A DNA stretch of 64,000 nucleotides from an uncultured bacterium (GTDB taxonomy: Bacteria; Omnitrophota; Omnitrophia; Omnitrophales; Aquincolibacteriaceae), in assembly GCA_964482725.1 (NCBI GenBank), contig CAYZYT010000005.1, positions 88,133-152,132 of the forward strand, read 5' to 3'. Position numbers and translations under genes: made by a program. The notes beneath the pieces were generated by a model. That model was not told the DNA's origin. It saw nothing but the letters and a program-made list of their open reading frames with translations, and ran no database searches. Positions 10,201 through 40,410 of this stretch are shown here, piece after piece. Numbering within the stretch: the stretch's first letter is position 1; each line of letters starts with the position of its first letter.

Positions 10201-13200
10201 ACGATCTTGGCGATCCGGCGCGCCTCAACAGGCACTCTTTTATCCGCGGACCCCATGACGATCATCGCGTGAAAGTCCATCTCCGAAAGTTCCGAATCAC
10301 TGGCGACCGGCGTCCATGTGCCCGTCGTCGCGCTGTACGCCGCCCGCAATGCAAGCCCCTTCACAAGAGCCAAACCTTTCTCATTCGCGGCCGCCCGCTC
10401 CGCCGGCGTAAAAGTCCGAACCTCGGACCGAGCAACATTTACTGCAAATGATCCCTGCCAACTTTTGTTTTCCGAGCCAGTGAATTTAATCTCAGCGCCC
10501 GAGCCATCCAGATTTGATCCGTCTTCTTGCGTGGACTCTTTCCATCCAATTTGAATCTCATTCCCTTCGGGGACAAACGTGAGAGTCGGTTTACGGTCTT
10601 CCGCAAGCAGTTGTTCGATCTGAAGAAGTTTTGAATCCGGAATATTAAGCCACGCTACACGGTAATAAGGACCGTCCGAGAGGAAAGTACCCGCGCCATT
10701 TAGCGACGTCGGCAATCCGGCAATTTGCTTATCCGCAAATTTCACAACTTCCGCTTCAATAAAGCGAGCGGCATTTGGAAAACGGGTGAGTTTCCCTCCA
10801 AAAGTCCTCAGCCAAGCCATTCCATGCTTGATCCCCCAGCTTACACCGTAGATCGATGCAATAATTCCAATATCCATCGCCATATTAGAGAAAAATTCGA
10901 GAGGACTCCGCTCCCAAACAACACGCATTTGGTGGAACATTTGAGTGAACCCATTCTCATTTGCAAGGCCAAGCAGCGGAAGCGGAACGAATGACCGGAA
11001 CCCAAGAATATTCCAGCTAGGCCGCGGTTCCTGATCGTTATCCTCCGAACTTGTACTCTGCTCGGCTTGACGTTCTCTCTCAAGCCGCTCCGATTCTTCA
11101 CGCTCGGCGAGCTCTTTTGCTTCACGCGTAAGCATTTCTTTATATGCACTCACCGCATCTGCGGATCGCGGGTCTCCGATCTTCTCTAGTGCTGTAACGA
11201 CAGAATCGCTGACGAAACGATCCTTCAAAGCCGCCATCAAGGAAGGCACAGCATCGGTATCCCGCAGATCGCCAAGTGCATCAGCCGCTGCGCGACGAAC
11301 ATCGGGATACTTACTATTGAGCTGTTTCCCAAGATCCGAAAAAGCATTGAGCCCACGAAGCGCATGAATCGCAGAATCGCGAACATGTTCAAATTCATCC
11401 GACAACATCCCAACAAAAACCAGGGTCATCGACTTCTCTTTCATGTTTCCCAACACCTGCACAGCGAGAGCGCGAACATAAAAATCCTTGTCATTAAGAG
11501 TCTTGAGCAAAGCCGGCGCGGCGGGACTTCCGATCATTTGCAAATGCTTTGCCGCATCCGATTGAAACTTCGCTTGATGTAAACGCCACAAATACCAGCT
11601 GATCGGACTCGAAATACGCCAGACCGAAAAAACGATTAAACGAACGACAAGAAACGCTAAGATAAAAACAAAGATGCCTGTCACCCCGATGGTAAGCGTG
11701 GTCAATATCGGATGTGCAAGAAATTGATATCTGACCCAGTCCATCCCCCTCAAATCAAATTTACTCAAAGCTTCAAAAGCTTTATGTCTAACGTCTGGCC
11801 ATTGGTAGTCTGCTGCGACGGCCTGAAAGAGACCTGGGATAGCACGAGGATCTTTTAGCTCACCCAGAGCTTCAGCTGCATCATAAGAGACATCCAGATC
11901 ATTCGAATTATTCAAGGCGTCAATTAGTGCCGACACGACTCGCGGATCCTTCAATTGACCTAAGTCACCTAATGCTTCGAATGCAGCGAGACGCAAATTA
12001 TCATTCCGACTTCTTAAAGCAACGGTCAGGGCCGGAACGGCTCTCAAATCTTTCAGCTTACCAAGCGTGTTGGCGGCATAAACGCTAACGTCTGGGTTCG
12101 AATCCCCCAAAGCATCAATAAAGGCGTGCACATATTCCGGCGTTTTAAATGTCTCAAGAATTTTACGCGCAGTAACACGAACCCTAGTATGCCAATCATC
12201 TAAAGAATAGCCTCTTGAGAAAGGGATAAGTACCGGTACGACTCGCGGATCTTTCATTTTATCTAAAGCTTCTTCTACAGCGAGCCGCATATCAGTATCC
12301 CAAGTATTTAAGGCCTGGAACAGCGCCGGGACTGCTCTCAAATCTTTCAGCTCACCAAGCGTTCTGGCAGCATAAGAACTAACGGCCGGGTCCGAAGCCT
12401 CTAGATTTCTCATAGCCTCTTGAAACCTAGCCTCATTCTCTTTCGACAAAGCATTCAGGGGAGGAACTTGGGACGTCACCTGAACGATCGCGGAATTAGT
12501 TGCGGCAGGAACCATGTCCGACGCTTTAACGGAAACAGCCATCATTCCGACAACCGCCGCCAGCATCAATTTCTTCGCAACATTTCTTCTCAACTCCGAT
12601 CGAGCAGAAGGCTGACCTTCTTGCGAAGACTGGGCCGCAGGCCTCGGGGTAGCGTCGAATTCCTTTTGCAAAACCTCTATCTTGTCGACCACCGGCTTCC
12701 ACAACTTGGCGTCTCTTGCAACAAAAGGTTCCGACTTTTTTCCCAGTTTTTTTACCCCCGCGGCAAGCTTAACCAATTTTTCCAGGATCTCATTCTCCTC
12801 GTCCGTCGCCACGCCCTCCTGGGATCGCTTGCCCTTTGCCTTTTCCAAATCCTTAAGCAGTCGCGATTTTTCCCCCGCGATGTCATTCAACTGCGCCTCA
12901 GCCTTTTCTTTCGACTCTTTTTGCTCCTTCAGAAGCATGCCGGCTACTGCCATACGGACATCACTTGTATCTTCCTTGATCCTCAGGAGCTCATCGTTTG
13001 ACACGCCGGAAAGTTTTTTCCGCTGGACGAAATCCCACCCGAACACCCCGAGGAAGCCGAGAATGCGAACGGTATAGCTGGCGACCAGAAAAACAACCCA
13101 TATCATGATCCAAGCACTATTGCCTTGCAACCCAAGCTGAAAGAGCCCGGGAGCACCGTCCATGCCGCCAATACCGGAACCGGCCGTGATAAAGAAACTA

Positions 13201-16200
13201 TCCTTCATAAAGATCTGGTTGAACAATCCGAAGAAATGCTGCATCACATCCCAACGCCAGAAAGCAATGGTCGCAAGGATCGACGCAACGCCTCGGATCC
13301 TCATTAAAGCCGTTGCCACCTTCTGAGGAAAAACATAGCCGCTTTGATAATCCGAAAACGGTTTGATGAAGGTCGCGTACCAAAGAGGCATGGCGAGCAA
13401 TACATAAAAGAATGGTATCCAAACTGAAAACCACGGCAAACCAAAACCGACAGCAGCTAAAGTGGCTGCAACCAGAAGCATGCTAGTTCCGATCCGTCTA
13501 AACTCCCGCGCTTCATAGGGCGGTTTTCCTATCGAATCTTTCTGTGCACGCCATGATTCTTTATACAAAAACTTAAACCATTTCAATGAACTTGAGCGAT
13601 CCGATGCCATGAATTCCTTAATCGCTATCTTCAACGCATCTTCCACGGTTTTTTCCCCGCCAGGCAAAACGCGCGCCGCAGCAATATCGGCGGCAGCTTC
13701 TTTAATATGGTCGGCAGAAGTATTCCCGAGGAACCTTGCAAAATTTTCATTAAATCCCGGATTACTCTTATCATTTTTAACAAGCCAGGATTTTTCCAAA
13801 AACGTCTTCAGACGATGCTTGTATTCCTCTGAACGCAACCCCATTTTAAAAAGAAACGAGATGACAGGAACTACAAGCAATACCCCCGCAGCGAATGTAA
13901 TCCCAGTCGCTGCCCCCATACCAATACCCACCAGCATTGTGATCATGAAAAAACCGACCATAAAACCCCGGCGGGTCGTTGACGGATAAAAATATTTAGT
14001 CGGTGTTTCAGTCCGCATGATTATGTCAGCCGGCTGGGCACCCGGCGACTCCCCGAAACGGTGCAATCGGCCTATCGCTTCGCTGACTTCGGATTGATCC
14101 CAAATATCAAAAACGGAACTAAGGTAGATCGGCTCCCCTTTTTCATCCGTCCATTCAATAAAGTCTATGACCGGTCGAAACAATTTTGCCGCCCAAGCCC
14201 CGACCTTGCCCAATTTACTCTCGGGTCTTTTTTCCATGCCGGGCCCCTTCACACCCCAACTCTCGATCCAATTCAACAAGGCCCCCAGCAACGGCGTCGC
14301 AATCACCCCACCAAGGATAAAAAAGGTAAGCAACTGGGCCGCATAGACTGCCGTTACCCCATAAATGCCTGGGATAACTGCAGCTACCAGCATGAAGAAC
14401 AGGGTCGATCGCCACAAGGGGTTACTAAAAATACCACCCGTCGGCTTATCATTAAAAAACTTGGAGGGCTTAGTAAGGGCAAAGCTTCTGCCAAAAAATC
14501 TCAGATGCAGCGTCGGGATGTCATTGGAAAGCAACCACTTGGCGGACTTTTTAGCCGTCGACAAAAAGCTAGAGTCCCGGTCGTCACCGATAAGCCCCTT
14601 GCTGTCCGCACGAACCAGAAGCGCCGAATTGACACCCTGCATGGGAGCTTGGGTCGTCGCGAGTTCTTCGAAATACGCCAGAGGCAGGCTGTCCAATGCC
14701 ACAGGGTTCCAAGGCATCCGGTTCATCACGATCATCCGTGAACCGAGGACAAATGTCCGGTACAAAAACAGCGTGAAAGACCCGGCATTTCTTGCCTGCA
14801 TTTCCTTATATTTTCGGATCTTATCAATATTGGCATGCGCGTAACGAATGATCTCCCAGCTATCCGAAGGCGTTGCGGTAACGAGCTCGTCTTCACCATT
14901 ATATTTCCCGCCTAAACCGTTATCGGCATTCATAACGCCTTTAGTCGTCGTATCGGCAAGTTTCTCCTGGGTAAGCTCCTTCACCGCGGTTTCTGTCGGA
15001 AACTGCCTTTCCAATTCACGAAAAACAAACCCGGAAAGCAGAAGTATCCTTGTGTAGTAGGGATTCCAGACAAAACCCTTCATCTGCCTCGCCATCAGAC
15101 GGGCAATCTTCGTGGGAATGGTGTACTTTCCAAAAGCACGGTTGTAGTTGGAAAGCGCCGCCGCAAACAATTGGGTTCGGAAAAGCATCTTGTGAATCGC
15201 CCGTCCCTGGATCCAACCCATACTGGCCCCTTTAGATCGGTAGAAAGTGGCCCCCTGCAACACTCCCACATCCGGACGATCCGCTAGAGCACGAGTAAAA
15301 TACGGCACCGAACCCGAGAACGCGAAATTTCCACCGTCCACCGTGGTGCTGAAACGAACTTTGGGGATGGGGTCACCATTCTCGTCTTTTTCTTCCCGAG
15401 GGAGAAAATCTTTGATCGCATTTGTTTCTTTGGCCACCGAATAATCAAGAAATGGCGTTTCCGGCGTAGCAATCCCTCTGATGTAGGGGTTGCTGAGAAG
15501 GGGAAAATCAAGAAGAAGTGCGTCCGTTTCTATTTTCCCCTTGTTGACAGGATCACCCTTATAAGCCTCCAGGGCTGTTCTGGTTCCGATAAGAACTTGC
15601 CGCCCGAGATAATTTCCCTTCTTCCCAAGACGGTATTCAAAAACAGATCCCTTGGAAGTACCTGCAAGATCCCCCGAGTATTTGCCTGGCGTTCCGTCTT
15701 CACCGTAACCGGTAAATGCCCCCCACATGATAACGTTTCTTGCAGGCTTGCGATCTCCCGGAAAATAAGCAATGACAATACGTTCGTGCCCCTTGACCGT
15801 GCGAGCACCATCCTGATATTCCAGATAATCCCAAAAAGGCATAATTCTCTTATGAATTTCTTCCGATATTTTCTGTTCGTCAGCACCCCACCCGCGAGAA
15901 CCGGCCATAAGGACGACACGTGTTTGCTTAAAGTTGTTCCCGATCAATATTCTGGCAAGCGCCTCAACCACGTTATCAAGAACATCAGGATCCTTTTCCA
16001 TCAACCACGGGCAAACGAACGCGACCAGCTCGCCTTTATCAAATTTGACACTCAGCCCCTTCTTTTCAAGCTTCGCCATAAAATTCTTGTCCTTGTCGAG
16101 AACCTCATTCAGATCCATGGGTTCCCCTAGATTCTTACGAATCCTATCTTCGACCGTCACGACACTCTCCCCAGCAGCGGTAACATCTTTACGTTCACGT

Positions 16201-19200
16201 TTCGCTGCGCCAACCGCCTGAATGTCATCGATTATCGCGTCAACCTCCCCGTCAGACTTTTCCCATCCTTTGGGATCTACATCGTCGATGATCAGCCCGC
16301 TCTGTTTATCAACCAGGGGCGACATCAAGATGAGAAGCAGGATGGGAACAACGACAAAAACCAACGCGAAAGGATTCAAGCCGAACCAAATCTTTAGTCC
16401 TGCTAAAATCGCCGTCTTAAAAAACAAATCACTCACTAATACGCCTGCAACAGCTGTGCCCGCCAACAAGATAAACCCTTTCGGACGAGCCAGAAGCGTC
16501 GAGAAAAATGTTTCGCTCAAGCTGTTGTACAAACGCTTGAATACGAACATCGACGCTATGATCACGGAAGCGAACACCGCAACCGCCCAGGGTGATACCG
16601 ATGCCAGCGCCCACCCAATAATGGTGATATCCGTAAAAGCAAACAACATTTTGGCAAGATTGATTCTAAAATCGGCCAGCCGGCGGCTGAACAGCCACTG
16701 TTTTTGCGCACCCGTGAGCCCATCCTGCCTCAATTCGGAACGCACACCGGTGCTTGGCTCTGAAGTTCTAGCCGCAGAGGTTTCGCCCGCCACGGATGAA
16801 CTCGGAACGGATGGACCAGCATCAGGTGATGCGCTCTTTTTTGAAAATTTATACTTCTCAAAAAACACAGCTCTTATAGATCTAAAGACAAATGCGAGGA
16901 AAGCCGCAAGAAAAGCTATCGAGAAAATTCCGGCAAGAGGGGCTTGCAGATTTTCAAAATTAAAATAGCGAGAGAACCATACCTTCTCGGCCTTCACGAA
17001 AGGCTGGCTCTTGTCGTTCATGAAATCCATATTCAAGCGGCGCGTGATGGCGGCAAACTTGTCATTCACCAGCTGATCCTGCGCCAAATACTCCGTCGAA
17101 GGTATCTCTTTGGAAAACAGCAACTCGAAAAGACCGATACGCTTTGACGGATCCGAGTTCTGAAGATCCTCAAGAAGTGCAATTCTCAGAGGTGACTCCA
17201 CTTTAGGGCTTGGCAGATCGGAGGGTCGGATCTTCTGCTCCCGACTCGCCTCGTAGGACACATCCAAAAGCAACTGGTATTTATCATTCACTCGCTGCAT
17301 AAAATTGTAGAGATCAAGCGGCGAGATGGCATTCGCAATTAAAAGGGTTTGGAGCCTGGCCTTCAACTCTTGGCGCGCGGTATCTTTAGTCTTAGCGTCA
17401 GGCCATTTTTCATCCATCAACGCCTCAAGGCTAAGCTTTTTCTTGTCACGATTAATGATCCTGTCCACCCACATGCGCTGAGGGTCTGCGTAGCCGTCGC
17501 GGCTGTATTCCTTAACAAGTGAAGCCGTCTCCTTTCTCAGCAACTCGATTTTCTTTTGATTCTCAGCAGAAACAGGCGCCGTTTCTAAACGATTAAGCTC
17601 CTGAAGCATTTTTTGGACACCCTGCGGCAGCCTGTTGTAGGGGCTTAGGACATTCTTTGTTCCGAAGAAGGAATCGAGGGTTCCCTGCATAAGACCTTCG
17701 ACCGTCTCGGCATCCCAAACCAGCCGATCAGGCTGCTCTGCGAGGCCCAGCTTCAACATGCCGTCCGCTTCATAGAGAATTCGCTTCACATCCGGGTTAT
17801 TGATCCCAGCCGTGATCGCGTTCGCACGCAGTGTTTTGGCGAGAGCCAGCCAATCGGTCAGATATTTTTCGGGGATATCACGGTTCGCGCTGTCTTCGGC
17901 AATGCGCTGAACTTCGTCGTTGAACTGTTTGGCACTGTATTTCATTAAGTCTTTGAATTCGAGGAAACGACCTGCCGGGCCCTTGAGCAACAATTCACGG
18001 GACTGCACTTTCTTAAAAAACGTTGCCCGCTCCCGGATATTCATGAGAAGCGCGGCCGGGTCGTCCTTCGCGGAAATGGCCGCCGCCTGCTCAAGGATCT
18101 CGCGCGCCCGGTGCTGAATGCGAGCACGCGTTTCTTTATTGCTGACCTTTCCGATCCTGTCGGTAAGTTGCCCGTCCGAATCCTTTGCGCCCATCATTTT
18201 GCAAACCAGGGGCAGGACAACACCGTTAAAAAAAACGGTTTCTTCGGCGGAATCCCCCGTCCGGAGCATTTCGCCCACGAGTCCGATCTTTTCTTCGCCA
18301 TCAACCTGGATCGTGGCGATCCGGCTTACCTTGTCTTCCGGTTTCATACCGGGCTTCGCATTCGCAGCGTCGATCTCCTTGTTGGCAGCGTCGATCACCG
18401 GATTCAGGCTTTCGATAACGGTATCAAGGCCCTGGTATTTACCATTACCTGTCAGAAGAAAATCATGCAGCTCCTGATAAGGATCGGCATTCTTGGCATT
18501 GAGATCTTTAGATGTCGCAACCCCGGTGAGAAAGAATTCAAGGACCTTTTCATAGGAGCTTCTCTGGAACTCGCCCTGGATGCGTTCGAGATTCGCCTGC
18601 CGGGCCGCTTCCCGCTCGCGCCGCTTTTGGCTGATCATATATTCCGAATACTTTGAATATTCCGACTTGTCATCGTGGCGCTTGCCCGCGCTTTCCAGGG
18701 CCTGACGCTCTTTTTGCTCTGCATAATGCCCGATAAACCAGCCGGCAAAATCATTAAGGAATTTCTCCTCGTCGATCTTCGAATAGTCAGCAAACTTCGC
18801 AAGATCGCTCGTTCGGCCGAACACCGCACGCCCCAGAGATTCCTTGGCTTCTTTCATCGAGATCATCAGTTCATAAATCACCGCCTCGGCCTGCGCCGGG
18901 TTATATTCAAGAACTTCCCGCTCATCTAACGTCTTCGTTTTTCGGGCTTTGATCTCCGCCATCATCTTAACGCCCCAGTCCATGCCAAGCACTCGGCCGG
19001 ACTCTGCTTTACTCTGACTGGGGGGGATATCCATACCGAATACCTGGCGATAGAGAAACCGGTAAGCCCTCATAGGCTCGTATGTTCCTGCCGGCCGCGT
19101 ATCAATATCCTGAAAAAGTTCCGTTGCATAACGCCTTTTAATCCGAGAAATCTCATATTCTGAAATCTGCAACCTGCCGTTGCGCGCCCCACGAACAAGC

Positions 19201-22200
19201 CCAGGCAAAGCTTCAGGAGCTGAAAAATTCCCATAAGCGCTGTACAAGGCCGCATCCACGATCGCCGCATCCGAAAGCCAATCGTAAATACGCGCCATCA
19301 TCGCCCCCTCTTTTTCGGGAAAATTCCTGTGTCCCCACACCTGCATTTCCAATTCACGGGAAACGGCACCAAATATCTTCTCACTCGCCCACGCGGAATG
19401 ATGCGCCCTGACCCAAGCGATCATCGCATCGTTAGCTTTCGCAGCTTCTTCTTCGGTGAGCTTTCCAGTCTTGACCAGCTTTTCCGGGTTATTTTTGTCT
19501 ACCACGAAACCGAATTCCCGAAGCCGTTTGGCGATCTCCTTAGGGAAATTAACGGCAATGTCCGAATTTCCGGCGGCCACAAAAGCCTTCAGCACATTGA
19601 TCTCATCTTCGATCGGCTTGATTAGGGATTCCTTCTGTTCCTTAGTCAAATCCGTCTTTGCATCAATGTCCGCTTTCCGTTTCTCATCCGCCGCCAGTGT
19701 CTTCGTTGCCTCCAATCTGGCTGTTGCGTCATAAGGGTTCATCGTCAGGTAGCGTCCTTCGACGGCCGCGGCTAAAAGGCCTCTTCCCGCGAGCAGCCGG
19801 GCATAGAATTCAAGGGCCTCGCCGGTCAGTTTCATCTGCGGATAGATCGCCTCACGGAACATGACGTTACGCGAATACGCCGACAATTCCCCGCGGACAA
19901 GGCTCTCTTCCCCGGATTGGCCGACAACGGGATAAAGCGAGTTCACGGCCTGCAGATACATTTCACTTTCAACGCGGCGAAGGATCGCCTCCTTCGTTTC
20001 GGCAGCATCCTTCTCACCCAGCTTCGCGAGGCCCCAATTGACCTGCTCCGAGATCCACGCCTTGGCTTCATTCGGACTGTAGGGTTCATTCATGAGGGCG
20101 CGCTTGCCGTCTTTATCTTTCGTGATCCTCTGCAGTATCCGGAGCCGCTCGCCTTCCGACATCCAGAAAGGCCGGGGAGCTTTCGGATCGGAGTATCCTT
20201 CAAGACGGTTTTTCAGGCTTAAGCCGGCCATTTCTTTCGCGTCCAGGACCGTGCTGACCCACTGGTAATAAGCTTTGCAAAATTCCTTGTGGTCCCACGT
20301 TTTTCCCTGCATGAGTTTCTGGATATTCACGTCTTCCGCATCCAGCTGCTCACGCGTCGCTTTCACCTGAGGAGACAAACCTTCTTGCCGGCTGGCGTTA
20401 TAGATGACGACGCGGCGACCGATGACGGCCTCGGCTTCTCTGAGGATCTCCGCCGGATCACGGACCACGTTTTTGGAAACTTCTTTCCCGGACTTTGCGG
20501 CTCTGTCTTCCTCGATCTTCCAGGCCAGATCCCGGGCCACGGCCATGATATCGCCGGGCTTGGAGCGGTCGCTCTTTGCGGCGTATTCTCCCGTATCCTT
20601 ATCGGTATCCGTAAGATACTTTTCGATCATGGGCGCCCCCAGATCGGGATCAGCGAGAACATAAAAGAGCGTCCAGGCCTTGCTTTCGTCCTTGATCGAG
20701 CCGTCATTATTTAAAATGTCTCTGAAACCGGTATCCTCCCCCGTCAGTCCGCCCGAGCGCAACTTCCGGCCGATCGCCATCATGAAACCGAACTTATCGC
20801 CGGTGTCGTCATCGCCCAGATTGAACCTTTCGTTATTGCCCGGCCAATTTTTCTTCGCGGTCAGGTCCCGCAATCCGCGGCTGAGATTGAAAACCACCCC
20901 GAGCGTTTCCTTCATTTCTTTCAGGCGCACGTTCAATTTCTTGTCGGTCCAGAGATTCCGGTCGGTGATGCGCTCGTACCCGACGCCATAAAGCAGCTCA
21001 TTCAAAAGGCCCATCGCGCGGCCGAGTTCTTGCCCTTCCTTGGCATCCACCATGGAAGTTTCGATAAGATCGTAAGAATCCATTTTATCCCTGAGACTCA
21101 TGGCGCTGCCTTTTTGACGCAGGTGCGTCAGGGATTGGCGCGCGGCAAAAGCCCCGGGAGAATTCACGAACGTATCTTCGGAAAGCTCCTGCATTTTTTT
21201 CTTTTCGAGCTGTTGCTTTGCTTTCAGGTCCAAGGGGTTCCCCCGGGCATCCTTCATTTCCACGCCTGAGGCGATCTGCCGGAGCGTCGTGAGAGCGTCA
21301 AATCCTTCGTTGGGGACTGGAATATTATTGGGATCCGCCATCAGGGTCTTCATGTCCCCGATCGCGTAGGCGATCGTGGCCCAATGCTCCTTGGGGATGC
21401 CCGACTGACGGAGGGCCGCTCGCACCGCAAGCGTTCGGGCCTGTTCTACCGTTTGATCCTGATCGATATGCTTGACCGCGACGGTACCGATGGAATCATG
21501 GATCAGAGCATAATGGCGTTGCTTGTCCTTCGCGCTCATCGTCTCCGAACCCTCGGCGAGCAATTCCCGCATGGGTTTCCCTTGAGCCACCGCCGTTGCC
21601 GCGTTCAACAAAGGATGCTGGGCGAGACGCTTGAGCAAGTCACGCTCCTGTTCTTTCGTCAGGATCATGGGCTCTTCTTCTTTTGTGAGGGTCTCTCCGC
21701 TTTCCTTTTTCAGCTGCGCTTCCACACTCTTCTGTAATTGTTCAAGCTCCGGAGGCGTGTAGGTCCCGTCCACGATCGCCCGGAAATCCCACGACTCTTT
21801 CTCGCCGTAGCTGCTCTCGTCGGAATTCACACGACGGTCCTGAACGGCGCGCCAGCGCTTGTTCAGGGAATAATTCGGGAAATTTTCATTGAGGATGTCT
21901 TTGTAAGGCCGGGTTACGGTATGGCCCTTATGGGTTTCGGTGACCTTTTGATCAAAGATCGCTTTACCTTTATTGAGGTCGATCACCTCGGGACGGAGCT
22001 TGGCATCGTAGGCAAGGCCCCAGATCATGCCGAATTCGGCGGGGGCGTTAATATCGAGCTGGATCCCAAGCTTCAATTTTGCTTGAGTGCCTTTATCCAT
22101 ATCCTCGGGGAACGCCGTATCGGGAAGAGCGCGGTAATATTCCTGCAAAAGGTCGCGGGACTTGACCAGGGATCCCAAAAGCTCGAGGAACCACTTTCTG

Positions 22201-25200: not shown

Positions 25201-28200
25201 ATGATCCGCTCGCGCTGGTCGATCCATGCCGCCACCGCCGCCGAAAGGCCCGCCTTGAGACCTTCATACTGACGTTTCAGGATGGCCACTTCCCCCGGAG
25301 CCAGGGACGCCATGCGGTCAAAGCTGTCCAAGGTATCTTCTGCGGAAATAACGCCGACCTGCATATCGATGACTTCACGCTGGATATTTTCTTCCGTGGC
25401 CGTCTGATCGATCCCGATCACTCGCGAGGCAAAATTCCCGACAATCGGAATGTGATCTAAAAGACGGTCGCCCCACCAATAAGCAGGGCCGATAATGGGC
25501 ATCACACCCGGTTTCGTCGAACTGGTCCCGATCTCGTCATAGCCCAGCGCAAGACTGCCCTTGGCTCCAAAGCGCCACTTGGCGCCCATCAGATATTCCC
25601 GGGCTTTTTGACCGTGGAGCTGAATCAGATCGAGTTTACGAAGAATCTCGGTGACCGGGGAGATCGTGGATATGGAGCTGAGCTTCTCGCCCGCGCCGTG
25701 TATTTGCTGAAAAAGTTCTTCTTGTTCCTGGAGATATTTCACCGCGAAGTTCAGACGTTTTTTGAGTTCCAGGGCGCTCAGCGTGCCCTCCTTCGCATCC
25801 TTGTAGATCTTCTCCATCTCATTTTTAACGAAATCAGACATCTTGGCGGCGTCGACGGAGGCATGAAGGAATTGCCGGGTCACCTCCTGCAACCTATTGA
25901 GGCGCATGGCCCTGTCTTTCTTGACCGCGTCTTCTCCCGTAGCCTCCGATTTCCAATTGACCACTTCCTGAAGGCCCGTCTGAACCTTGATCATATCTTT
26001 GGAAAGCTTATCCAGCTTCAGAACCCGCGCCGAATTCTCCGGAGACATTTTCCCGAACCAAGGACTCAGCTCATCACGAAGCACCTTGATCTGCGCCACG
26101 GTCGCACCGACCGAGGCTGAAAACGCCTGAATCCCGGCGGTATCCTTGACCTTGCCGTCGGCATCCAAAAAGAGCCAAGGTGAAGTAACGACCAGTTTTT
26201 CCGCCTCGGCGAAACCTTTGATCTTTGTCTGGGCATCGATACGGGCCTGGACCGGGCCTTTCAGCTTTGCAAGGTCCGCATCCGTGAAGACTGCCGGATT
26301 CCCGCGGCGAGAAAAAACCAATCCCCGGTCGCCCTTTTCACCCAGCCATCCAAGATGCTTGACGATCTGATCAGCGTTTTGACCGAGTGCGATAAGCTGG
26401 TCGATCTCCTTGAAAACACTCTCGGCACTGGCAGCATGCTTCGCACCCAGCACCCCGGTGACAGACGCCCGCAGTGCTTTACCGGACTGTTCCTCCACAG
26501 CGGCTTTCTGTACACCCAAAGTCTCGGTCCCTTCAAGAAAGTCAACGGCGTTCGTGTCCTTCCCGAACGTGTAGATCTTGAACTGGAGCATGACTTTCGA
26601 AAGATTGTTCTGGGTCGCTTCAAGCTTGGCTTCCGCGATATCAAGATTCGCCTGCGCGTCCTTCATCTTCATCTGGGCTGCCCAGGAATAACCACCGACT
26701 TGGGGGGCCAGCCTTTTTTCAAATTTCGGCGAAATGGGTCTCTCGTCCCGTTCCGCGGCGGCAGCTTTTTCGGCTTTCTTTAATTCCTCATTACGAAGTT
26801 CGACTTCTCTCTCTGCAAGACCCACAAGTTTTGCGCCGAGCTGAATGTTATGGATCCATCCGCGCATGGTCGCGCTCAGATCCGTCGCCGTGCGTTGGAC
26901 TAACTTATCCGCGGAATCTCCGGCAAGATCCTTCTGGTTCTGGCGGGCCCAATAAGCCGTATCCGTCACGAGCGTAAGGCTCGGCCCGATATTCGCTCCC
27001 CGTTTCCAGCCTCTCTCGATCATGGTAACGTCTTTGCCGTTCCGGTCGGTGTAGCCCCAGCCGTATCCGCCGCCGAATGAGAATTTCATCCAACCCAGCA
27101 GGTTGTAGTTCAACCTGTCTTCGCCGGCCTGAAGGATCGCTTCATCGAGGCGGGGCTTTGCGGAAGCAAGGAGTTTTTGAAAATCAGGGTTGGCAGAATT
27201 CACATCTCCCTTAAACTTTGTTGCAAAGGCAAGCGCTTCATTCAAATTATTGCCCGCGACAGGGGTCTTGTCCTTGGCTCCCGCTTTCGGAGGTACGGCC
27301 CAGGACCGGAGGGTTTCTTCCCGAGCAGCTTTCAGCGCTGCCTGGATGTCCGCGACGCGTTTGGGGAACTGTTTTTCAAGATCGTTCACCGTCTTCGTGA
27401 TCTGTCCGTCCAGACCCGCGTACTGTTGCTTCCGGCTCTCGAGAAGGCTCACGGCCAATTCGGCGCCCTTGACGTCTTCGGTGATCTGTTCCTGATCGAT
27501 ATAAGCTTGGGCAAGATTGAGTCCCCGATTGGAAGCGCCGGACGGGTCACTCATGATCTGATTGATCACTTCGTCTTTCGCGCCCATCGCGCTTTTGACC
27601 TTGGCCTCATAGCTCTTTGCGGCTGCAAGGGATTGATCCAGGAGAAGTTGATCTTCATAGAAGGCACGCGCTTTCGACGAAAATTTTGCAAGCTCAGTCG
27701 CGATCGCCGCCTCCTCTAAGATCTTATCCTTATTCCGTTCCTTATAAAAAAGGCCGTGAAGGGACCAGCTAAAATCGATCCGGAGGATATCGACGGAAAA
27801 CTCATTGCCCAGATTCCAAACGCCGAGCGTGCGCAGAAGGTCCCAGCTAGCCTGACCGGCGACCGTCCCATCCACACCGCTCAATACGCTTTTTGACGCG
27901 ACTTTTTGATTGACCAGACTTTTGGCCCGAGCCATCGAGGCGGTGACCCGGTCCACCGGCATGCCTTCTTCCTTTTCGAAAACCTCCTTGATCGAATCCA
28001 GCGTAATCCCGTCAAACGGACTTTTCTCGCTCGAATCTTTTGCTTTGTCCGAATCTTTCGCCGCCGGAATGTTGATGGCATCTTCCGTGCCGCGACCTGT
28101 CAGCTGGACGATCTCCCGGCTGATAAGCTTGCGCGAGGTTTTGAGCACTACGATATCGCTTTCCACGGTTTTGATCGCCGCCGCGATCTGCCTCTGGGTC

Positions 28201-31200
28201 TGGGTGTTGTAGTCCTGACCGCGGGTCTTCATCTGATCGAGAAGATTCTGCGCCAGTTTAGTTTTCAGGGCTTCTTTCGCGGTGATCTTCGCGTTAAAGA
28301 AAGCGATCTGGAAGAATTTCTGGACGATCGCATCAAAGGTCTCCCCCTGAGCGATCTCAAGATCCGCTTTGGCGGTATCCGACTCCGCCTTCGCGACGGC
28401 CCGCTGACGGATCCACGCAAGGTTGAGAACTTCGACGCGCAAAACAAGCATGGCGTCCCAGTCCCTTTCCTTCAAGGTCTCCCGGGCCAGCGTCGTGCCG
28501 TTCTTGCTGTCATAGCAATCAAGACGGGACAGGTACGTCAAAAGCGCGGCGTCATAGGGATTCGTCAGGACAATGTCGCGACCGAGCCGTTTCTCCGCCT
28601 CAGCCTTCATCTTCACAAAGGAATCCATGATCTCGGGAAGCGTCGCCCCGCCGAAGATGTCCTTGGCATTGATCCCTGAATAGAACGGATTGTCGTAGCG
28701 CTCGGCCCAGTAGGAGGCAAACCCCATCATCTCCGCGATCGGACGGCTATAATTCGCCTGATCCGACGGATTGCTATGAGCGGTAAGATAGGCGGGACTC
28801 CGCTCCGACACCGGCACGGCCCGCAACTCCGGGGTCAAATTCCAGAAACCGCTATCGCGTCCGCCGATCGCATTGATATTCGCCGCAAACCGGCCAGTGG
28901 TAATGTCGGTCGATTTCAGATGAATGATGGTGCCGGCATCGACCTCCTTATAATTTTCAAAATGGTAAGTGTCAGCCTCCGGGTCGCCGTTCCCGATGAT
29001 CGCATACACCGTCGGATTGCCGTTTTCATCCCACGCGACCGGCGAATAGGTTTCCGTATAATCCGGCGCGTAATTCGCCTGCTTCAGGGTGACATTGCCG
29101 CTGCCGTCATCGACCCAGCTATAATCGAATTTAACGCTTGAACCTTCGGAAGTCCCGTTGTGCCCCTGATATAAAGGAAGGTCACGCGGCGTAGCGTTAT
29201 AGGAAATCGACAGGTCCAGCGTGATCAGCCGGCGGTACCAGCTCCAGGAATCATACGTCTCGTCCATGATCTTTTTCTCGATCCCGGCTTGCTTAACGAG
29301 GTGCCCGTTCTTGACCCCTTCCGCGACCCAATTTTTGACTTCCGGGCCCACGGCTTCTTTTCCGGGGATCGAAAATCCACGGTAAATGTCAACGGTGTTC
29401 TTGGCATGCGACACAATGGCCGCAGTCAGTTTCTCAATAGTAGCTTTGTCCGCCGTGACGCCTTTCGCTTTTTCAGCAATGATCGCCGCCTGGAGTTTCC
29501 GGATCTCGTCATTTTCGGGAGCAAGCTTGGCATCCATGGCCTTCTGGTTGGCCAGCACCGCAGCCTGCGTTTCTTTTTGAATGTCCTGCAAAGCGGCTTC
29601 CTGCGCAGCGATCTTCTTTCCGAGCTCCTTTTTAGCTTTTTCGTCCTTCGCCTGTCCGAGCTGGGACTTGAGATCCGTCAGCGACTTGTCTTCTTTCGAA
29701 AATTCGTCGCGGAGCTCCACCATTTTCGTGATCGTCGGCGGGAGCTTCACTTCCTGAGTTGCGGAAGCTTTGACTTCGGCTTTGACAGCCTGTTTTTCTG
29801 CCGGCGCGGGTGTGGCAGCTTTCTCCGGAGCCGCGACCGTTTTCGGCGTTTCCTTCGGAGCTTCCGGGGCCAGTTTTTCCGCGGCAACGGTCACGACGGC
29901 CGCGGCGGTGCCTGAAACGGCGGCCACAGAGGCATTCACAGCGATCGTTTTGACGGATTCGGTTTTGGAAGCTTCGACTTCCGGAGCCGCCACAGAGGCT
30001 GTTTTGAGGCGAAGGTCGTTGAGCTTCTGTTCGGCTTGGCGAAGCGCGTTAATGTGAGTCACGAGATTCTTCATGTTCGCGGGATCCGGCATCTTTTCGG
30101 ACATACCTTCTTTGACCGTAGTCCGACGCAGGACGCGCAACAAACCGTTCTTCGAACCTTCGGTCTTAAGCGCTGAAATACTTTTCAGTATTCCGTCCAG
30201 ATCGACCGGCTTTTCGGCCCGGACACCACGGAAGATCACATCACGGACGGCGTCTTTGGCATCGATCCTCCCGGCGAAGGTCAGCTGCAGATAGCTATCC
30301 AACCCTTCGATCGCCAGCACCCGTTCAGCTTTGGCAGTACGGATCTCCGTATCAACGGCTGCCCGCGACTTTGCCGCCTCTTGCGCGGCTTGGCGCTTTT
30401 GAGCTTTGGCCGCCTCGGCCGCTTTTTGGGCTGCGATACGATCCTCTTTAACTTTTTGAGCCGCAATCTTTTCCGCGGCGGCTTTTTCTTCGGCTTCGAT
30501 CGCGGCAACCGCATCCCGAGCCGCCTTATTCATGACTAGCGTCGGTTCCGTAGAAGGCTTCAGAGGAGTGCCTTCGGCTGCGAGTTTTGCTTCTTCACCG
30601 AGTTCTTCAGCGGGTGCCTTCGGAGCTTCTTTGACGGTCATCGGAGCTACCGGAACCACCACGGCAGGCTTGACTTCCGCGACCGCGGGTGCCGGAAACG
30701 CTTTCGCAAGATCGGCCGAGGTTTTTTTCATAACAGCCGCGGCTTCCTCAAGTTCTTTCTTGGATTCCGCGACCGTGACCTCAGCCTTCGCAAGTCTTTC
30801 CTTGGAGGATTCGACAGCTACGGCCGGCGCGGGAACGGCTTTGACTTGAACTTTCGCCGTTTCCACGACAGGAGCTACTGTGACTTCGGGTGTCACGACC
30901 GGAGCTTTAGGGGCTTCAACGGGAGCTTTGACAACGGGTTGAGCGGCAGGCGGTGTTAGAACCACCAACGCATTTTCCATAGGAGCTTCGGCGGCTTGAG
31001 ATGAAGAAACAAGCAATGCCCCAAGACCCGCAAATCCCGCCTCCACCCCAGATTTTACTTTCGCCCATTTGGAAGCAGACGGACTCACCCCAACGGGCCC
31101 GGCAACCGTCTGCTGATCCAGGCCTAATTGTTTTTTTGCCTCCGCTAAGATCCTGGCCGTTTCGACACCGGGCCCATAACGATCCATCGTGTCTTGTTCG

Positions 31201-34200
31201 ATTTCGGAATACTGGGCTCGTCGCATTTCAAGCGTCATTTTACTTATCGAGATTGCCGACGAAGCGTATTGCTCGGCTTGTGCGATCTGGTGATGAATGG
31301 ATGAGGGGTTCTGTAAATCTTGCGTTGAGGGCCGATCTGCGGGTGCTTGACGCATAAGAGCGGCCAGACTCTGAACAGCTTGGTGAACCCCGGAATCCTT
31401 GGAACCGTCGGAAGCTTGAACGAATTGTCTCAGCTGAGGTAAATAATAGGTCGGGACATCTTTGAAAAGCTCCGCATTCGGAACATGCATCGCCGCAAAT
31501 GCAGGCGATGTAAAATGGATAATTTCTGATTGAAGGTCAAATCCTGTCCTGGTAGTCAACTCCGCCATTCCCGAATGAAATACGCGGCCGTGCACTCCGA
31601 GGAGATCCTCTTCGACGAACAAAGCCGGTTTTACAAGCGTCCAGTCGACGAGCGACTGCAGGCCATACTCCTGCACAAAATCACTATTGGCCACCACCTG
31701 AACGAACCCGCCCTCCATACCTCCTTCAGGACCTGTCTGGAGACCGACAAAGCTGCCGAGTTCACCTCCAAGGGCATAGGCGGAAAATGTCCCTAAAGTA
31801 ACGCTCCACCCGTAATCCTCCAAGGTCGGCGCCAAACGAAGGGCTTTGAAGAATATCTTAAGCTCCTCTCCCACACTGAGCTTGAGTTTTTGTGAAACCG
31901 GCACAGCTTCCTGAGGAGGCCCCCGCTGATTGAGGTTTTGGCCAAGAATAATTTCAAAAAAGTAACGATCGCTATCACTCGCGAAAAGGATCGCGCCTTG
32001 GTTGTAAAGTTCCCGGATCTGTTGAAGATCGGCCGGGCTTGTCTTCGGATCCTGCATCAACCGATAAAAAACATCCGGGGTCAGGAGCCACGCGTAACTG
32101 TTCAATGACTTCATATTCTGTTTCGCTTCATGCTGGGCAAACATATCCGTGAGGATCTCCTTCACGCGGCCGGCTCCGAGCATTTCAACAATTCGCTTGC
32201 TCGCAAAATACCCGGCTACTTTCTGACGATACCGCAGCCAATGAAGAATAACCTGGGTCGCGAACATCGTTCCAAGCACGCCCACGGTCGCGGAGGCCGC
32301 AAGGCCGGAAATGGCCGTCACAAGCATGACGTTCGGTCCCGCCATCGCCGTCAGGAACGCGAAAAATCCGGCAAGGATCGGAATGGACGGCAAAAAGACA
32401 CCGAGCGTCAATCCGACGATAAAGGAAACCGTGCTCAATGCCATGCGGTTATTCGTGAACTGAAGGATCGGGATCACGATCAAGGCCATGGGGATCCAAA
32501 GCACCAGACGAACCGTGGCCAGAACGCCGTCGATCAGATCGATGCCGAGACTCGCCAGCTTCCACGCGATCGGGTTTTTGATCTTATCCTGAAATCCGAA
32601 AGAACCCAGCCCGTATTTATAAGTATGAACGATCGCTTTCCCCCACGACCATCTCAGAAAACCGTTATACACAAATTTCTGGAGCGCTTTTGCGTTCTGG
32701 TCGCTCCAAGTCGAATACGTCACGCCAAAAAACGGCTTCTCCTTGACTGAGGCAAGTGCACCCGCCAGTTTCTGGGCCGAAACGCCTACGGAAAGACGAC
32801 GAAATTCATATTTCGCGATCCCCCGAACGAGCCCCAGCCACTCTTTGGGATTCTTAAAAAGAAGCGCGGCACCTTTAAGCGACAAAAGCTTGCCCAAGTG
32901 CTCGCCCGACAAGAGTCCCAAATGACGGTTAATGCTTTTTTCCACAAGCTCGGGATAAAAGGCGTAGAACGCGTGGAAAGCAACCCTTAAAAGCGCAATA
33001 GTCACAATGACGAGATAAACTTTCATGGCAATCAGACCGACCACCGGCACCAAAAAGCTCGCAAGTACGCCAAGCCCCGCGACCAACCCCAATTTCATAC
33101 CGATGCTTTTCAGCCGTGCGACCCATACAGCTTTCCGGCTCTGTGCCGTACCTTTTTCAGCCGACTTCATCTTTTCGCGGTTGCGCGCCTGCTGATCTTG
33201 GCTTACCACGGCTTCATGCATCATCTCCGCAAGACGGATCATTTGGGCCTTATCCAGACTGTTCCATTCGACGCCGTTCTGCTTGAGCAGCGCATCAAGA
33301 AGCGCCGCATTCCCTTTGAAATGATTGTTCACGAGGATATCGCGAACCCGTTGACGGACCTCTTCGGTCGACAGCGCTTTCAAATACTCGACCACCGGCA
33401 TCCGGTAAGACGTTTCGGGCTGAGCTTCTGCAGCTTTGATCAGATCCGCGAGCGACGCTGCCACGGCTGGCTTCACTTCCGGTTTCTGTTCGACAACGAC
33501 CGCCGGCCTGGCGGCAGCTTGTTCCGCGGCGGCCTGCTTGGCGGCAAGCGCCTGGTCGATCTCAACGCCGACATTTGCGCCGATCGGTCCGGAAGGTCCG
33601 GCCGCGATCTTGACCGCCCGAGCGGCTAGCCGCTCATCAATGAGTTTCTGAAAAGTTTCTTTCGAATGGGTGATGGTGAATGCATTGATCGGCACGCCCA
33701 GATCCCGAGCCTCGATCAGAGTCGGCATTTTCGAATCAACCGTACGGATTTTGTCGGGAGTCAAAAAGGAAAGGATGCGGAGAACCACGGGAAGACTGAG
33801 AACCCCCTTTGCGGAGATCTTCTCCATTTCATTCATTCTAAGGTCAAAACCAAGGTTCAGGAGGAGCCGCCGATAGGCTTGATACTCCCTGTTTTCAGAA
33901 TCCTCCGCATTTAAAATGAGCTCGGCCGTAAGACCCTGGGGCAGTTCAAGACCTTGATCCTGCAAATACGCATTCAGCCTCAAGAGGTTGGTCTTGATGA
34001 GAGCCAGCTCGGATTTCTGGCGTTCCTGCTCGGATTTGATTTGCGCGGCCTTGATCGCCTCGTCGTATACCTCGCCAAACTTCGGGCCGAAGGGCTCAGG
34101 CTGAGCCGGGACTGTTTTCTGCTCAATCACTCCGGATGTGATCTCGATCGGCCTCTCATGGGTCGTTTCTTTTGCAACAAGCTCCGGTTGAGCTTTCATT

Positions 34201-36323: not shown

Positions 36324-36426
36324 CGGATTGCCGTCCTCTCCATAAGCCGATTAGAACTGCTCTTGTACTACCAAGCTCTTGAGTCACCATTAAAACTTAT
36401 TTCAACATCTTATTAACCTCAATAGA

Positions 36427-36455
36427 AATATACACAATGGAAGCTCTACAGTCAA
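36427..36455 (-). promoter_or_regulatory. Candidate sigma70 promoter for the giant ORF: -35 TTGACT, 17-nt spacer, -10 TATATT with a TG-type extension.
   Basis: The minus strand reads ttgact-gtagagcttccattgtg-tatatt. The -35 is the reverse complement of 36450-36455 and the -10 of 36427-36432. This gives a 5' leader of roughly 100 nt before ATG 36323. Confidence 0.4.
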
Positions 36456-36903
36456 GGAAACCTAAAAAAATTTTAATGATGTAACCCCTTACCAATCAAC
36501 TGGTTGTGTTGCTCCTTAAAAAAATACCAACTTTTCTTAGATTCCATAGAATTTCTCATAGCATTAGTTGTCAGCTAAAATGGCCTGTTTTTCAACAAAA
36601 AACAGGCTTCGAGATAAAGCTATTTATCGTGTTAATAAAAAGTTTTTGAAAATAAGTTTCTTTTAATCCACGAAGAAGACGATACATAATGATCCCCTGC
36701 AAAAACTACAATCGAAAATTTTCGGCAAAAATTTCCATAGAAAAAAAATCGCGAGCATTAAATTCAAAAAACCCCGAGAAAACCCCACACAAATCCAAGA
36801 AGAGACCCAGAGATTAATCCCCAACATTAATGCCTGGAGATTTTTTTAGGAGTCGAATAATCACGGAAACCGGAAGCTCTTGCTCTGGTCTGAGAATTAA
36901 AAC

Positions 36904-36938
36904 AAAAAAGCCCCTCGCAAAAATCCCGAGGGGCTTTT
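36904..36938 (-). terminator. Intrinsic terminator hairpin (GCCCCTCG / CGAGGGGC, 9-nt loop) flanked by an A-run and a T-run. It is effectively bidirectional and most likely ends the minus-strand tRNA transcript.
   Basis: Positions 36910-36917 pair with 36927-36934. The minus strand is followed by TTTTTT; the plus strand is followed by TTTT. Confidence 0.5.
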
Positions 36939-37159
36939 CAATGATAACTGCCGTCGCCGCACAGGGTTTCAAAATCCTGGCGCGCGGTACCAATTCACAA
37001 AGAATTGGTGGACCTGCCCTTTACATTTCATTTCAAGGGCGATAAAAATCATCGAGGAGAGTCGGCGCCTTCCACTTCGTTCCAGGTCGGCCACCCGCCC
37101 TAGAAACATGACATCCCGTCATGTTTCATTACAGGTCTCCCTTCGACTCTCCTACCAAT

Positions 37160-37195
37160 AAAAAAATTGCCCGATGGCAAAAGCCACCGGGCAAT
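37160..37195 (-). terminator. Hairpin plus U-tract immediately 3' of the tRNA-like element on the minus strand.
   Basis: Minus strand reads ttgcccggtggcttttgccatcgggcaa followed by ttttttt. The stem is about 11 bp with one mismatch and an AAAA/UUUU loop. Confidence 0.5.
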
Positions 37196-37197
37196 TT

Positions 37198-37310: not shown

Positions 37311-37332
37311 ATGACCTCGATCATAAAAAATC

Positions 37333-37405: not shown

Positions 37406-37464
37406 TCGATTTTTTATGATTGAGAGAACCAACCTTCAAGATTGGCCCTTACGAAGAATTCGCA

Positions 37465-40400: not shown

Positions 40401-40410
40401 GGGCCTTTCC

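Follow-up and report, generated by a model that had tools for sequence, protein, structure and literature searches.

The window, a stretch of 64,000 nt of DNA, contains on its minus strand a single frame without stop codon that runs from position 36353 down to position 1 (36.3 kb). The giant ORF within this frame and the features assigned to its product are listed in Table 1. An GGAGAGGA motif lies 9–16 nt upstream of the ATG at 36323, and residue 1 of the giant protein aligns with residue 1 of the homologs P0004–P0009. At the other end, the last aligned point is giant aa 12104, which pairs with residue 5471 of the 5491 residues of P0124. About 20 aa are therefore probably missing from the C-terminus and, as judged from this alignment, the complete protein probably comprises ~12,130 aa. 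The sequence-only reading had given the span of the protein as 11600–33130; the hydrophobic clusters that it reported lie inside these limits, but the gene runs far past both ends and the N-terminal anchor falls outside.

LepA, also encoded in the window (50143–51963), was 92–96% identical to the protein of four MAGs, three of which are named Omnitrophota/Omnitrophica, and the giant locus is syntenic with the Omnitrophota contig L081. On the basis of the LepA identity and the synteny the window is assigned to the Omnitrophota, a placement that we regard as established by these comparisons; the closest homologs of the giant protein are annotated as Candidatus Omnitrophota. Annotated domains are few and divergence is rapid: the first ~8,000 aa gave no Pfam match, and a relative with a 77%-identical N-terminus showed no BLAST similarity further downstream.

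Table 1. Features of the giant ORF and its product. Positions are those of the window; KD, Kyte-Doolittle hydropathy.
Feature	Residues (aa)	Position (nt)	Strand	Basis or remark
Giant ORF		1..36323	-	ATG 36323; at least 12,107 codons; 3' end cut by window edge
N-terminal signal-anchor or signal-peptide helix (predicted)	12-32	36228..36290	-	KD 1.72
Conserved N-terminal module	~60-550	34674..36146	-	Homologs, alignment A2, AF2 pLDDT 83
TM block A	1076-1358	32250..33098	-	~5-6 helices, hydropathy
TM block B	6462-6670	16314..16940	-	B1, 77-aa Ser/Pro-rich linker, B2-B5
Conserved inter-block soluble region	6671-7306 (~640 aa)	14406..16313	-	84-88% identity to L082
TM block C	7307-7763	13035..14405	-	Three tight hairpins and final helix C7
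HEAT-repeat array upstream of helix D	7971-8206	11706..12413	-	AlphaRep/HEAT PDB sequence matches; Pfam HEAT_2
Single helix D	8207-8233	11625..11705	-	KD 2.81; Hessa-type sum -2.5
HEAT repeats downstream of helix D	8266-8398	11130..11528	-	Pfam HEAT_EZ, HEAT_PBS; PDB match 8335-8398
DUF218 domain	8686-8803	9915..10268	-	PF02698, 32.1 bits, cut-off 27.6
UDPGP-like nucleotidyltransferase	9648-9845	6789..7382	-	PF01704, 23.2 bits, cut-off 22: borderline
NAD-dependent epimerase/dehydratase (Rossmann)	11452-11617	1473..1970	-	PF01370, 34.7 bits, cut-off 20.9

Hydrophobic segments

Helices were called from Kyte-Doolittle 19-mers scoring at least 1.6 and from a Hessa-type scale; the numbers of helices inside long hydrophobic runs are manual calls from hydropathy. 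The two scales gave ~20 helices at five sites along the giant protein. The 20 called helices had a median spacing of 39 aa, and none of 10,000 random placements was equally tight. Ten 19-mers scored ≤1.0 kcal/mol on the Hessa-type scale, against 0.99±0.94 in 200 composition shuffles. Uncharged hydrophobic runs of 20–61 aa are present, the long ones (34–61 aa) having a mean KD of 1.6–2.1. Lys/Arg-rich flanks lie beside the hydrophobic segments, and homologs of just 20–40% identity are hydrophobic at the equivalent positions.

In principle, the clusters could belong to the buried interior of soluble domains, or the ORF could be an artefact of assembly or annotation: the TM calls rest on hydropathy scales, and the AF2 model of block C was uninformative (pLDDT 36). 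However, long uncharged runs of this hydrophobicity are not a feature of soluble folds, and the low-energy 19-mers are in ten-fold excess over the shuffles. Likewise, an artefact is at odds with colinear, stop-free homologs in independent assemblies (L082, 7,170 codons; P0124; P0125; P0129) and with the conservation of amino acids despite synonymous divergence (see below). We consider this explanation extremely improbable and, from the sequence features given here, the clusters are membrane-spanning segments and not globular cores.

The clusters at all four sites reported by the sequence-only reading were thus recovered with the Kyte-Doolittle 19-mers, far above chance and recurring in related giants, and its four quoted peptides are all present in the translation. 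Its preference for membrane helices over buried cores agrees with the uncharged runs, the conserved hydrophobicity and the Lys/Arg-rich flanks. Of the at least four polytopic blocks that it proposed, A, B and C are polytopic, but D is one helix of 27–31 aa. The several helix clusters along the protein bear out the statement that it is not a single anchor plus a fibre.

N-terminal module and block A

The helix near residue 12 was absent from the earlier list of clusters. It recurs in most homologs, and the AF2 model shows a helix over residues 11–41. For the module that follows, at least 145 homologs were found in large proteins of Omnitrophota and Elusimicrobia, and H94, E122, R467, G492, G493 and H495 are invariant (alignment A2). 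The Ere/ChaN/TraB-GumN/TIKI superfamily is defined by a split alpha/beta core in which His, Glu, Arg and Gly-x-x-His are invariant. The N-terminal module has corresponding invariant residues and possibly a similar core but differs by a helical insertion of ~300 aa, and it shows neither a significant structure match nor profile similarity. EreC, BcR135 and ChaN were in the top 20 of a Foldseek search, with weak scores (E 0.4–1.8; TM-score ≤0.23), and the A2 profile gave nothing relevant among PDB sequences and no Pfam match.

Block A is made up of one 42-aa hairpin, a helix on its own and a run of 61 aa that counts as three or two helices. Its sequence is not conserved relative to P0129 (z 1.7) and is weakly conserved relative to P0125 (z 8.5); in both proteins, TM segments cluster at the corresponding relative position. 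The layout of helices in P0129 (12, 1283–1548 and 7160–7356) and in P0125 (12, 1269–1402, 5501–5659 and 6389–6966) resembles that of the giant protein.

Conserved membrane core

Block B is homologous in P0125, P0126, P0127, P0129, P0130 and P0131, and B2–B5 are 88–100% identical to those of the ortholog L082. The inter-block region was found in 13 homologs; no Pfam family and no PDB sequence matched it. It includes a juxtamembrane domain (aa ~6980–7306) with invariant H, R..FGKY, PYYT, NGEDE, DDR, KW and ND.P (alignment A3). The hairpin runs of block C are 44, 37 and 34 aa long with loops of ~100 aa between them, and the hydrophobic segments stay in register among the homologs (alignment A1).

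Over aa 6559–7811 the identity to L082 is 84–100%, compared to 35–54% in the flanks of L082. The core residues are identical despite differences at 41–46% of the fourfold-degenerate sites; in C1–C2, 44 of 44 residues are identical and 11 of 27 fourfold-degenerate sites differ. The synonymous divergence is 24–46% in the core and 68% in the flanks. Given the lower value in the core, more recent exchange, in addition to selection, could account for part of the high identity. By these alignments, blocks B and C and the ~640 aa between them are one conserved core, for which no match was found in Pfam or among PDB sequences and which is the new result here.

This core would be under strong purifying selection, and it is likely the functional centre of the protein and not merely a tether. 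One speculative, rather unlikely proposal is that aa 6559–7811 (B2–B5, the juxtamembrane domain, the C hairpins and C7) form a membrane-embedded module, an enzyme or a translocase, that has not been described before and is specific to giants of the Omnitrophota type. It might, for instance, act as a glycan synthase/exporter supplied by the C-terminal sugar-nucleotide-type domains, or as a built-in inserter/exporter of the neighbouring mega-domains that replaces the SecA-like domains of other giants. At ~1,250 aa, and under far stronger selection than the other parts of the protein, the core is of a size that structure prediction or expression could handle.

HEAT repeats and C-terminal domains

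Helix D, the most hydrophobic segment of the giant protein, is set between HEAT repeats; HEAT_2 (PF13646) matched five stretches (E 1.3e-49). The whole segment of HEAT repeats and helix D (aa 7812–8621) is missing in the orthologs L082 and P0124.

Orthologs have their domains in shuffled order. This points to modularity and would fit a polyprotein, that is, an ORF product cleaved into several ordinary membrane proteins with each TM block in a different mature protein. The equivalent region in L081 is called as two genes (1,297 and 7,903 aa), and cleavage has been raised for giants with C39 or S8 peptidase domains (West-Roberts et al. 2023). Against such processing, which we judge quite improbable, no peptidase family was detected in the giant protein by Pfam, and the N-terminal module has no significant resemblance to Ere/ChaN/TIKI proteins.

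Topology

At least five hydrophobic runs of 34–61 aa carry Lys/Arg on both outer flanks. Going by this charge pattern these runs are tight hairpins, and the neighbouring regions would therefore lie on the same side of the membrane. An extra hydrophobic run of ~40 aa in P0124, at a position where the giant protein has a soluble loop, makes that insertion hairpin-sized as well. A TopPred-like enumeration yielded near-tied scores of 33, 32 and 30, with every solution violating something. Parity and positive-inside counts gave no self-consistent global topology, and none fitted the positive-inside rule and cytoplasmic enzymes together. The helix number after block C varies between orthologs: L082 is without a helix past C7 and D is present here, which, read in the simplest way, would put the C-terminal enzymes on opposite sides in the two proteins.

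A strictly alternating arrangement, with an odd effective number of crossings per block, would place the N-terminal module outside; the 5.1-kaa central region and the stretch between blocks B and C would face opposite sides, with the HEAT array outside and the enzymes inside. The manual helix counts of four sites are all odd (N 1, B 5, C 7, D 1), the best positive-inside enumeration has aa 1359–6461 outside and the B and C loops inside, and most annotated domains of such giants were predicted to be extracellular by West-Roberts et al., who themselves call such predictions unreliable. The counts, however, hinge on how the 34–61-aa runs are split, and the competing solutions score nearly equal. 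A central region on the outside would also leave either the Lys/Arg-rich flanks of block A or the nucleotide-dependent enzymes outside, and both L082 and P0124 differ from the giant protein in helix number after C7. We regard strict alternation as possible but doubtful. The alternating cytoplasmic and extracytoplasmic mega-domains of the sequence-only reading are only partly supported: there are membrane segments and no lone anchor plus fibre, but many helices form hairpins that lead back to the same side, and the parity and positive-inside counts do not agree on one topology.

At the other extreme, the large regions could all be cytoplasmic, with hairpin or re-entrant anchors and no large domain translocated except perhaps the N-terminal module. 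Such a tethered protein would account for the tight hairpins with Lys/Arg on both flanks, for the nucleotide-dependent enzyme folds and for the HEAT repeats, and it would need no Sec translocation of thousands of residues; in a 2026 preprint (bioRxiv 10.64898/2026.06.07.730766), a TM-only class is described as anchored in the membrane, with most of the protein on the cytoplasmic side. The single helices N, A3, B1, C7 and D must switch sides, however, unless undetected partners pair them; the strong positive charge of the loop that follows B1 speaks for an outside-to-inside orientation of B1, and the N-terminal helix resembles a signal anchor. A wholly cytoplasmic arrangement is somewhat unlikely in our view.

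The reading that we favour, and consider probable, is that of an ordinary member of the Omnitrophota giant membrane-associated proteins: one polypeptide of ~12,130 aa, attached at five cytoplasmic-membrane sites by ~20 helices, mostly hairpins, and combining variable anchors with a conserved core. The N-terminal helix, block A and helix D would be the variable anchors, which show fast sequence turnover or occur in some orthologs only. The core would consist of B2–B5, block C and, between them, the ~640-aa soluble region, in which acidic and basic motifs are invariant. Most helices would be tight hairpins, with entry and exit on one and the same Lys/Arg-rich (cytoplasmic) side. The N-terminal module would be exported, and the block B and C loops and the nucleotide-dependent C-terminal domains (UDPGP-like, epimerase and DUF218) would be on the cytoplasmic face. 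We infer the sidedness of the regions, and the same holds for a catalytic or transport function of the core. Since much of the TM content apparently consists of hairpins, large 'extracellular' assignments made in this class from simple helix counts may be wrong.

Comparison with known giant proteins

Repeated membrane crossing had been called unusual in the sequence-only reading, but is the rule in the Omnitrophota. Multiple TM helices were reported in most Omnitrophota giant ORFs (Seymour et al. 2023, PMC10066038), every full-length giant was described with numerous TM regions (West-Roberts et al. 2023, bioRxiv 10.1101/2023.11.21.568195), and the 2026 preprint gives a mean of 22.2 and a median of 16 TM helices for proteins of ≥10,000 aa. 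With ~20 helices at five sites by hydropathy, the giant protein falls within the latter distribution and is not unusual for its lineage. Because many TM helices are expected in giant proteins, the locus leaves the overall picture unchanged; how a membrane protein of >1 MDa is made, inserted and used is a question for the whole Omnitrophota class, in which topology predictions are acknowledged to be unreliable.

The 39,678-aa ORF of Ca. Velamenicoccus archaeovorus has 42 TM helices (Kizina et al. 2022 as cited in Seymour et al. 2023, PMC10066038). Compared by the description of that giant, the two share the phylum, a single ORF of >20 kb, dozens of predicted TM helices along the chain, few annotated domains and weak conservation outside islands; the present one (36,323 nt stop-free to the window edge, >10,000 aa) has about one third of the length and about 20 helices. 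No adhesin, dockerin or discoidin domains were detected by Pfam.

Two types of giants were described by West-Roberts et al. 2023, with a focus on 30,000 aa, compared to ~12 kaa here. Archaeovorin-type giants have divergent SecA_DEAD/SecA preprotein-binding domains, found by structure-based detection, and often C39 or S8 peptidases; Dockerin-type giants have dockerin, TSP3 and discoidin repeats and an N-terminal majority that is free of TM segments. The Dockerin-type assignment was rejected, as dockerin, TSP3 and discoidin had no Pfam match and TM segments occur from aa 12 onwards. For the Archaeovorin type, no SecA_DEAD (PF07517), C39 (PF03412) or S8 peptidase match was found at Pfam sensitivity (1,000-aa tiles; E ≤ 0.1 for aa 1–10000 and E ≤ 0.05 for aa 10001–12107). 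With no SecA-like, C39 or dockerin domain found, the protein fits neither subtype; it is like both in its many TM regions, embedded sugar-metabolism-type enzyme domains and ambiguous topology.

The 'multi-enzyme metabolic' and 'HEAT tandem-repeat scaffold' proteins of the 2026 survey of complete Omnitrophota genomes are similar in their PF13646 arrays, several unrelated enzyme Pfams and large Pfam-dark stretches; here, PF13646 arrays occur together with DUF218, UDPGP and Epimerase domains, all above the cut-offs. The grouping of TM helices in conserved modules, the B–C core and the N-terminal module are not described in the available part of that survey. Overall, the locus is a new example of a hallmark of the phylum, giant proteins that are repeatedly anchored in the membrane, and not a new kind of thing.

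Extent and build of the giant open reading frame

The minus-strand frame that encodes the giant protein (the giant) was free of stop codons from 36353 to window position 1 in a direct stop scan. Its first ATG, at 36323, is followed by 12,107 codons up to the window edge. This start was confirmed by alignment, residue 1 of the giant pairing with residue 1 of many homologs; the motif GGAGAGGA lies 9–16 nt 5′ of the ATG. The homologous giant P0124 (5,491 aa) is colinear with aa 7035–12104 and ends 20 residues further on, which suggests that the full length is probably ∼12,130 aa. The sequence-only reading was right to place all membrane clusters inside one gene, but the gene is much larger than the span it had assigned. 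According to Tandem Repeats Finder the gene contains no DNA tandem repeats, and thus the giant is not a repeat-built fibre.

Cysteine is extremely depleted in the giant (8 of 12,107 residues or 0.07%, versus 0.73% in 21 neighbouring ORFs) and likewise scarce in homologous giants (0–11 per 4,000–7,700 aa). A plus-strand ORF at 3528–7010 (1,160 aa, ATG start) was rejected as a gene, being a same-phase antisense shadow of the giant. Stops in its frame derive only from sense TTA, CTA and TCA codons of the giant, which are rare (122 of 12,107), and the longest gap free of these codons (1,162 codons, nt 7010–3524) coincides with this ORF.

Membrane segments

Transmembrane (TM) candidates were taken as 19-residue Kyte-Doolittle windows of ≥1.6. 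Hydrophobic clusters were found at each of the four places where polytopic blocks had been claimed (blocks A, B and C and helix D), but site D is a single helix and therefore not polytopic; an N-terminal helix had been overlooked. By our calls there are 1 helix at the N-terminus, 5–6 in block A, 5 in block B (B1–B5), 7 in block C (C1–C7; 8 if the weak segment 7675–7692 is included) and 1 at D, while ∼10,800 of the 12,107 residues are without a convincing TM segment. On a Hessa-type insertion scale, ten 19-mers were at or below 1.0 kcal/mol, as compared to 0.99±0.94 in composition shuffles. The median distance between the 20 called helices is 39 residues, a degree of clustering that was not reached in any of 10,000 random placements.

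Features of the giant, with their detection and identity to the metagenome ortholog L082
Feature	Residues (aa)	Window (nt)	Strand	Detection	Identity to L082
N-terminal helix	12–32	36290–36228	-	Kyte-Doolittle	
N-terminal module	∼60–550	34674–36146	-		
Block A	1076–1358	33098–32250	-	Kyte-Doolittle	
Region ahead of block B	5036–6460				48%
Block B	6462–6670	16940–16314	-	Kyte-Doolittle	
B1 and linker					45–55%
Core (B2–B5, inter-block region, block C)	6559–7811				
B2–B5 (helices and B3–B4 loop)					88–100%
Inter-block region	6671–7306				84–88%
Juxtamembrane domain	∼6980–7306	14406–15386	-		
Block C	7307–7763	14405–13035	-	Kyte-Doolittle	
C1–C2					100% (44/44)
C3–C6 (helices and C4–C5 loop)					73–78%
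C7					96%
HEAT array and helix D	7812–8621	10461–12890	-		absent
Signal-peptide-like segment	∼7909–7940	12504–12599	-		
HEAT repeats	7971–8206, 8266–8398				
Helix D	8207–8233	11705–11625	-	Kyte-Doolittle	
DUF218	8686–8803		-	Pfam	
UDPGP-like domain	9648–9845		-	Pfam, borderline	
NAGPA match	10354–10410		-	Pfam, sub-threshold	
NAD-dependent epimerase domain	11452–11617		-	Pfam	
Downstream enzyme region					35–54%

The possibilities that the hydrophobic segments are cores of soluble domains, or that the ORF is an assembly artefact, were ruled out by colinear homologs with matching TM clusters, by the register of the block C segments and by uncharged hydrophobic runs of 20–61 residues. An exhaustive HMMER search with aa 6440–7639 yielded 16 relatives, among them fragments or complete proteins of 4,217–7,727 aa. 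P0129 is colinear with aa 1–6998 of the giant and has helices at 12, 1283–1548 and 7160–7356; those of P0125 lie at 12, 1269–1402, 5501–5659 and 6389–6966. P0132, P0133, P0136 and P0137 each have two TM clusters, ∼700–1,400 residues apart. In the alignment the hydrophobic segments of block C are in register among homologs at 19–41% identity; the similarity of block A to the equivalent cluster of P0129 was not significant (z 1.7). A protein homolog search with aa 6400–8300 returned HEAT proteins only (no match beyond ∼3,500 aa in that collection), and no match was obtained with the block C alignment in a protein homolog search, with blocks B–C in a scan of genome contigs, or in an exact 40-mer search of metagenome contigs.

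A conserved membrane core

The ortholog L082 was found in a metagenome scan on contig Ga0182027_10000292, and its whole 21.5-kb locus is one stop-free frame. Identity to the giant differs sharply between regions (see table). In the core 41–46% of the fourfold-degenerate sites differ although the residues are identical, showing that amino-acid identity is kept by selection; since the flank differs at 68% of such sites, some more recent exchange may have contributed as well. The soluble juxtamembrane domain directly before C1 was found in 13 homologs, and its motifs H, R..FGKY, PYYT, NGEDE, DDR, KW and ND.P are invariant in 8 homologs. Such a pattern would suit a site for catalysis or metal binding; the domain matched no Pfam family, and a profile search of PDB sequences gave no match. 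An AF2 model of block C from a 6-sequence alignment was unusable (pLDDT 36).

The HEAT array with helix D is absent from both L082 and P0124 and is a lineage-specific insertion. In L082, segments matching aa 8622–8907 and 8908–9214 occur in reversed order, indicating that the gene evolves as a mosaic. Overall, the sequence comparisons describe the membrane sites as one conserved core and not as four equal blocks. We consider this unannotated, strongly conserved B–C membrane core the most interesting part of the giant.

Proposed hairpins and topology

Several charge-free hydrophobic runs exceed the length of one helix: 42 aa (1076–1117) and 61 aa (1298–1358) in block A, and 44 aa (7307–7350), 37 aa (7456–7492) and 34 aa (7615–7648) in block C. 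Runs of ≥35 aa make up 22 of the 81 in the family as a whole. Both outer flanks of the long runs are rich in Lys/Arg (for example, 3 before C3, 4 after C4 and 4 before C5), and we read the runs as tight helical hairpins inserted from the cytoplasmic face. In the block C alignment P0124 has an additional run of ∼40 aa where the giant has a soluble loop; this change is hairpin-sized and keeps the parity, which supports the hairpin reading.

The hairpin flanks argue that the loops of blocks B and C are cytoplasmic, and from its nucleotide-dependent folds we infer the same for the C-terminal third. The N-terminal helix resembles a signal anchor; as such it would direct export of the conserved N-terminal module. 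A TopPred-like enumeration gave near-ties (33, 32, 30) and no unique topology, the top solutions placing C-terminal enzymes or Lys/Arg-rich flanks outside. Moreover, after C7 there is no helix in L082 versus helix D in the giant, and thus no self-consistent global model was obtained. Just ahead of the HEAT array lies an internal signal-peptide-like segment, RSELRRNVAKK-LMLAAVVGMMAVSV-KASDMVPAA. Speculatively, its weak stretch 7918–7940, if membrane-inserted, would pair with helix D and give the insertion even parity. The proposal of alternating cytoplasmic and extracytoplasmic mega-domains is weakened by the hairpin organisation. A similar inconsistency, between TMHMM and DeepTMHMM, has been reported for giant proteins (West-Roberts et al. 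2023, bioRxiv 10.1101/2023.11.21.568195).

Other domains and genomic surroundings

HEAT repeats flank helix D on either side. Pfam searches with 4,000-aa and 1,000-aa tiles found no family in aa 1 to ∼8,000; NCBIfam added nothing beyond HEAT-type matches, a PDB sequence search with the whole giant gave HEAT/alphaRep matches only, and SecA-like, C39/S8 and dockerin domains were not detected in the giant.

At least 145 large Omnitrophota and Elusimicrobia proteins share the conserved N-terminal module, and their C-terminal domains differ widely (PGK, PEP-utilising, UbiB, SecA, AAA). Residues H94, E122, R467, G492, G493 and H495 are invariant, and AF2 modelled the module with confidence (pLDDT 83). 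A fold search with this model returned non-significant matches only, EreC, BcR135 and ChaN among them, and a profile search of PDB sequences returned nothing; the module may be a distant Ere/ChaN/TIKI-like hydrolase.

A gap of 1.1 kb (36324–37464), in which no ORF of ≥150 aa was found, precedes the giant; the surrounding 2-kb window has a lower GC content (47.6%). Upstream of this gap, within 36324–44570, lie same-strand lipid-related genes for an S33-type hydrolase, an acyl-CoA synthetase-like AMP-binding enzyme, a thiolase and a cNMP-binding patatin phospholipase; a look-up of contigs encoding the hydrolase found none on record. This gene order is conserved in the syntenic relative L081 (JGI Ga0378408_0000201, 10001–23894), where two genes of 1,297 and 7,903 aa, with a 13-nt overlap, were called at the locus of the giant. 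The second carries a GDPGP1-type domain, and BLAST found no similarity to the giant in its first 3,337 aa, despite a 77% identical N-terminal module.

Comparison with known Omnitrophota giants

The lepA gene (50143–51963, minus strand) matches its counterparts in four MAGs at 92–96% identity, and three of these MAGs are named Omnitrophota/Omnitrophica; the genes upstream of the giant are syntenic with an Omnitrophota contig. Giant ORFs of >20 kb occur in most Omnitrophota classes, and in most of them multiple TM helices are predicted, 42 in the case of the 39,678-aa ORF of V. archaeovorus (Seymour et al. 2023, PMC10066038). A 2026 survey (bioRxiv 10.64898/2026.06.07.730766) gives 85% of 916 long proteins as TM-containing, with a mean of 22.2 and a median of 16 helices in proteins of ≥10 kaa, and describes HEAT-scaffold and multi-enzyme classes. 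With ∼20 helices in 12.1 kaa the giant is typical by these counts, and repeated membrane crossing, first taken as unusual, is not so in Omnitrophota. The giant lacks the defining features of the Archaeovorin and Dockerin subtypes but shows those of the general class, and thus belongs to an already known class of Omnitrophota giants.
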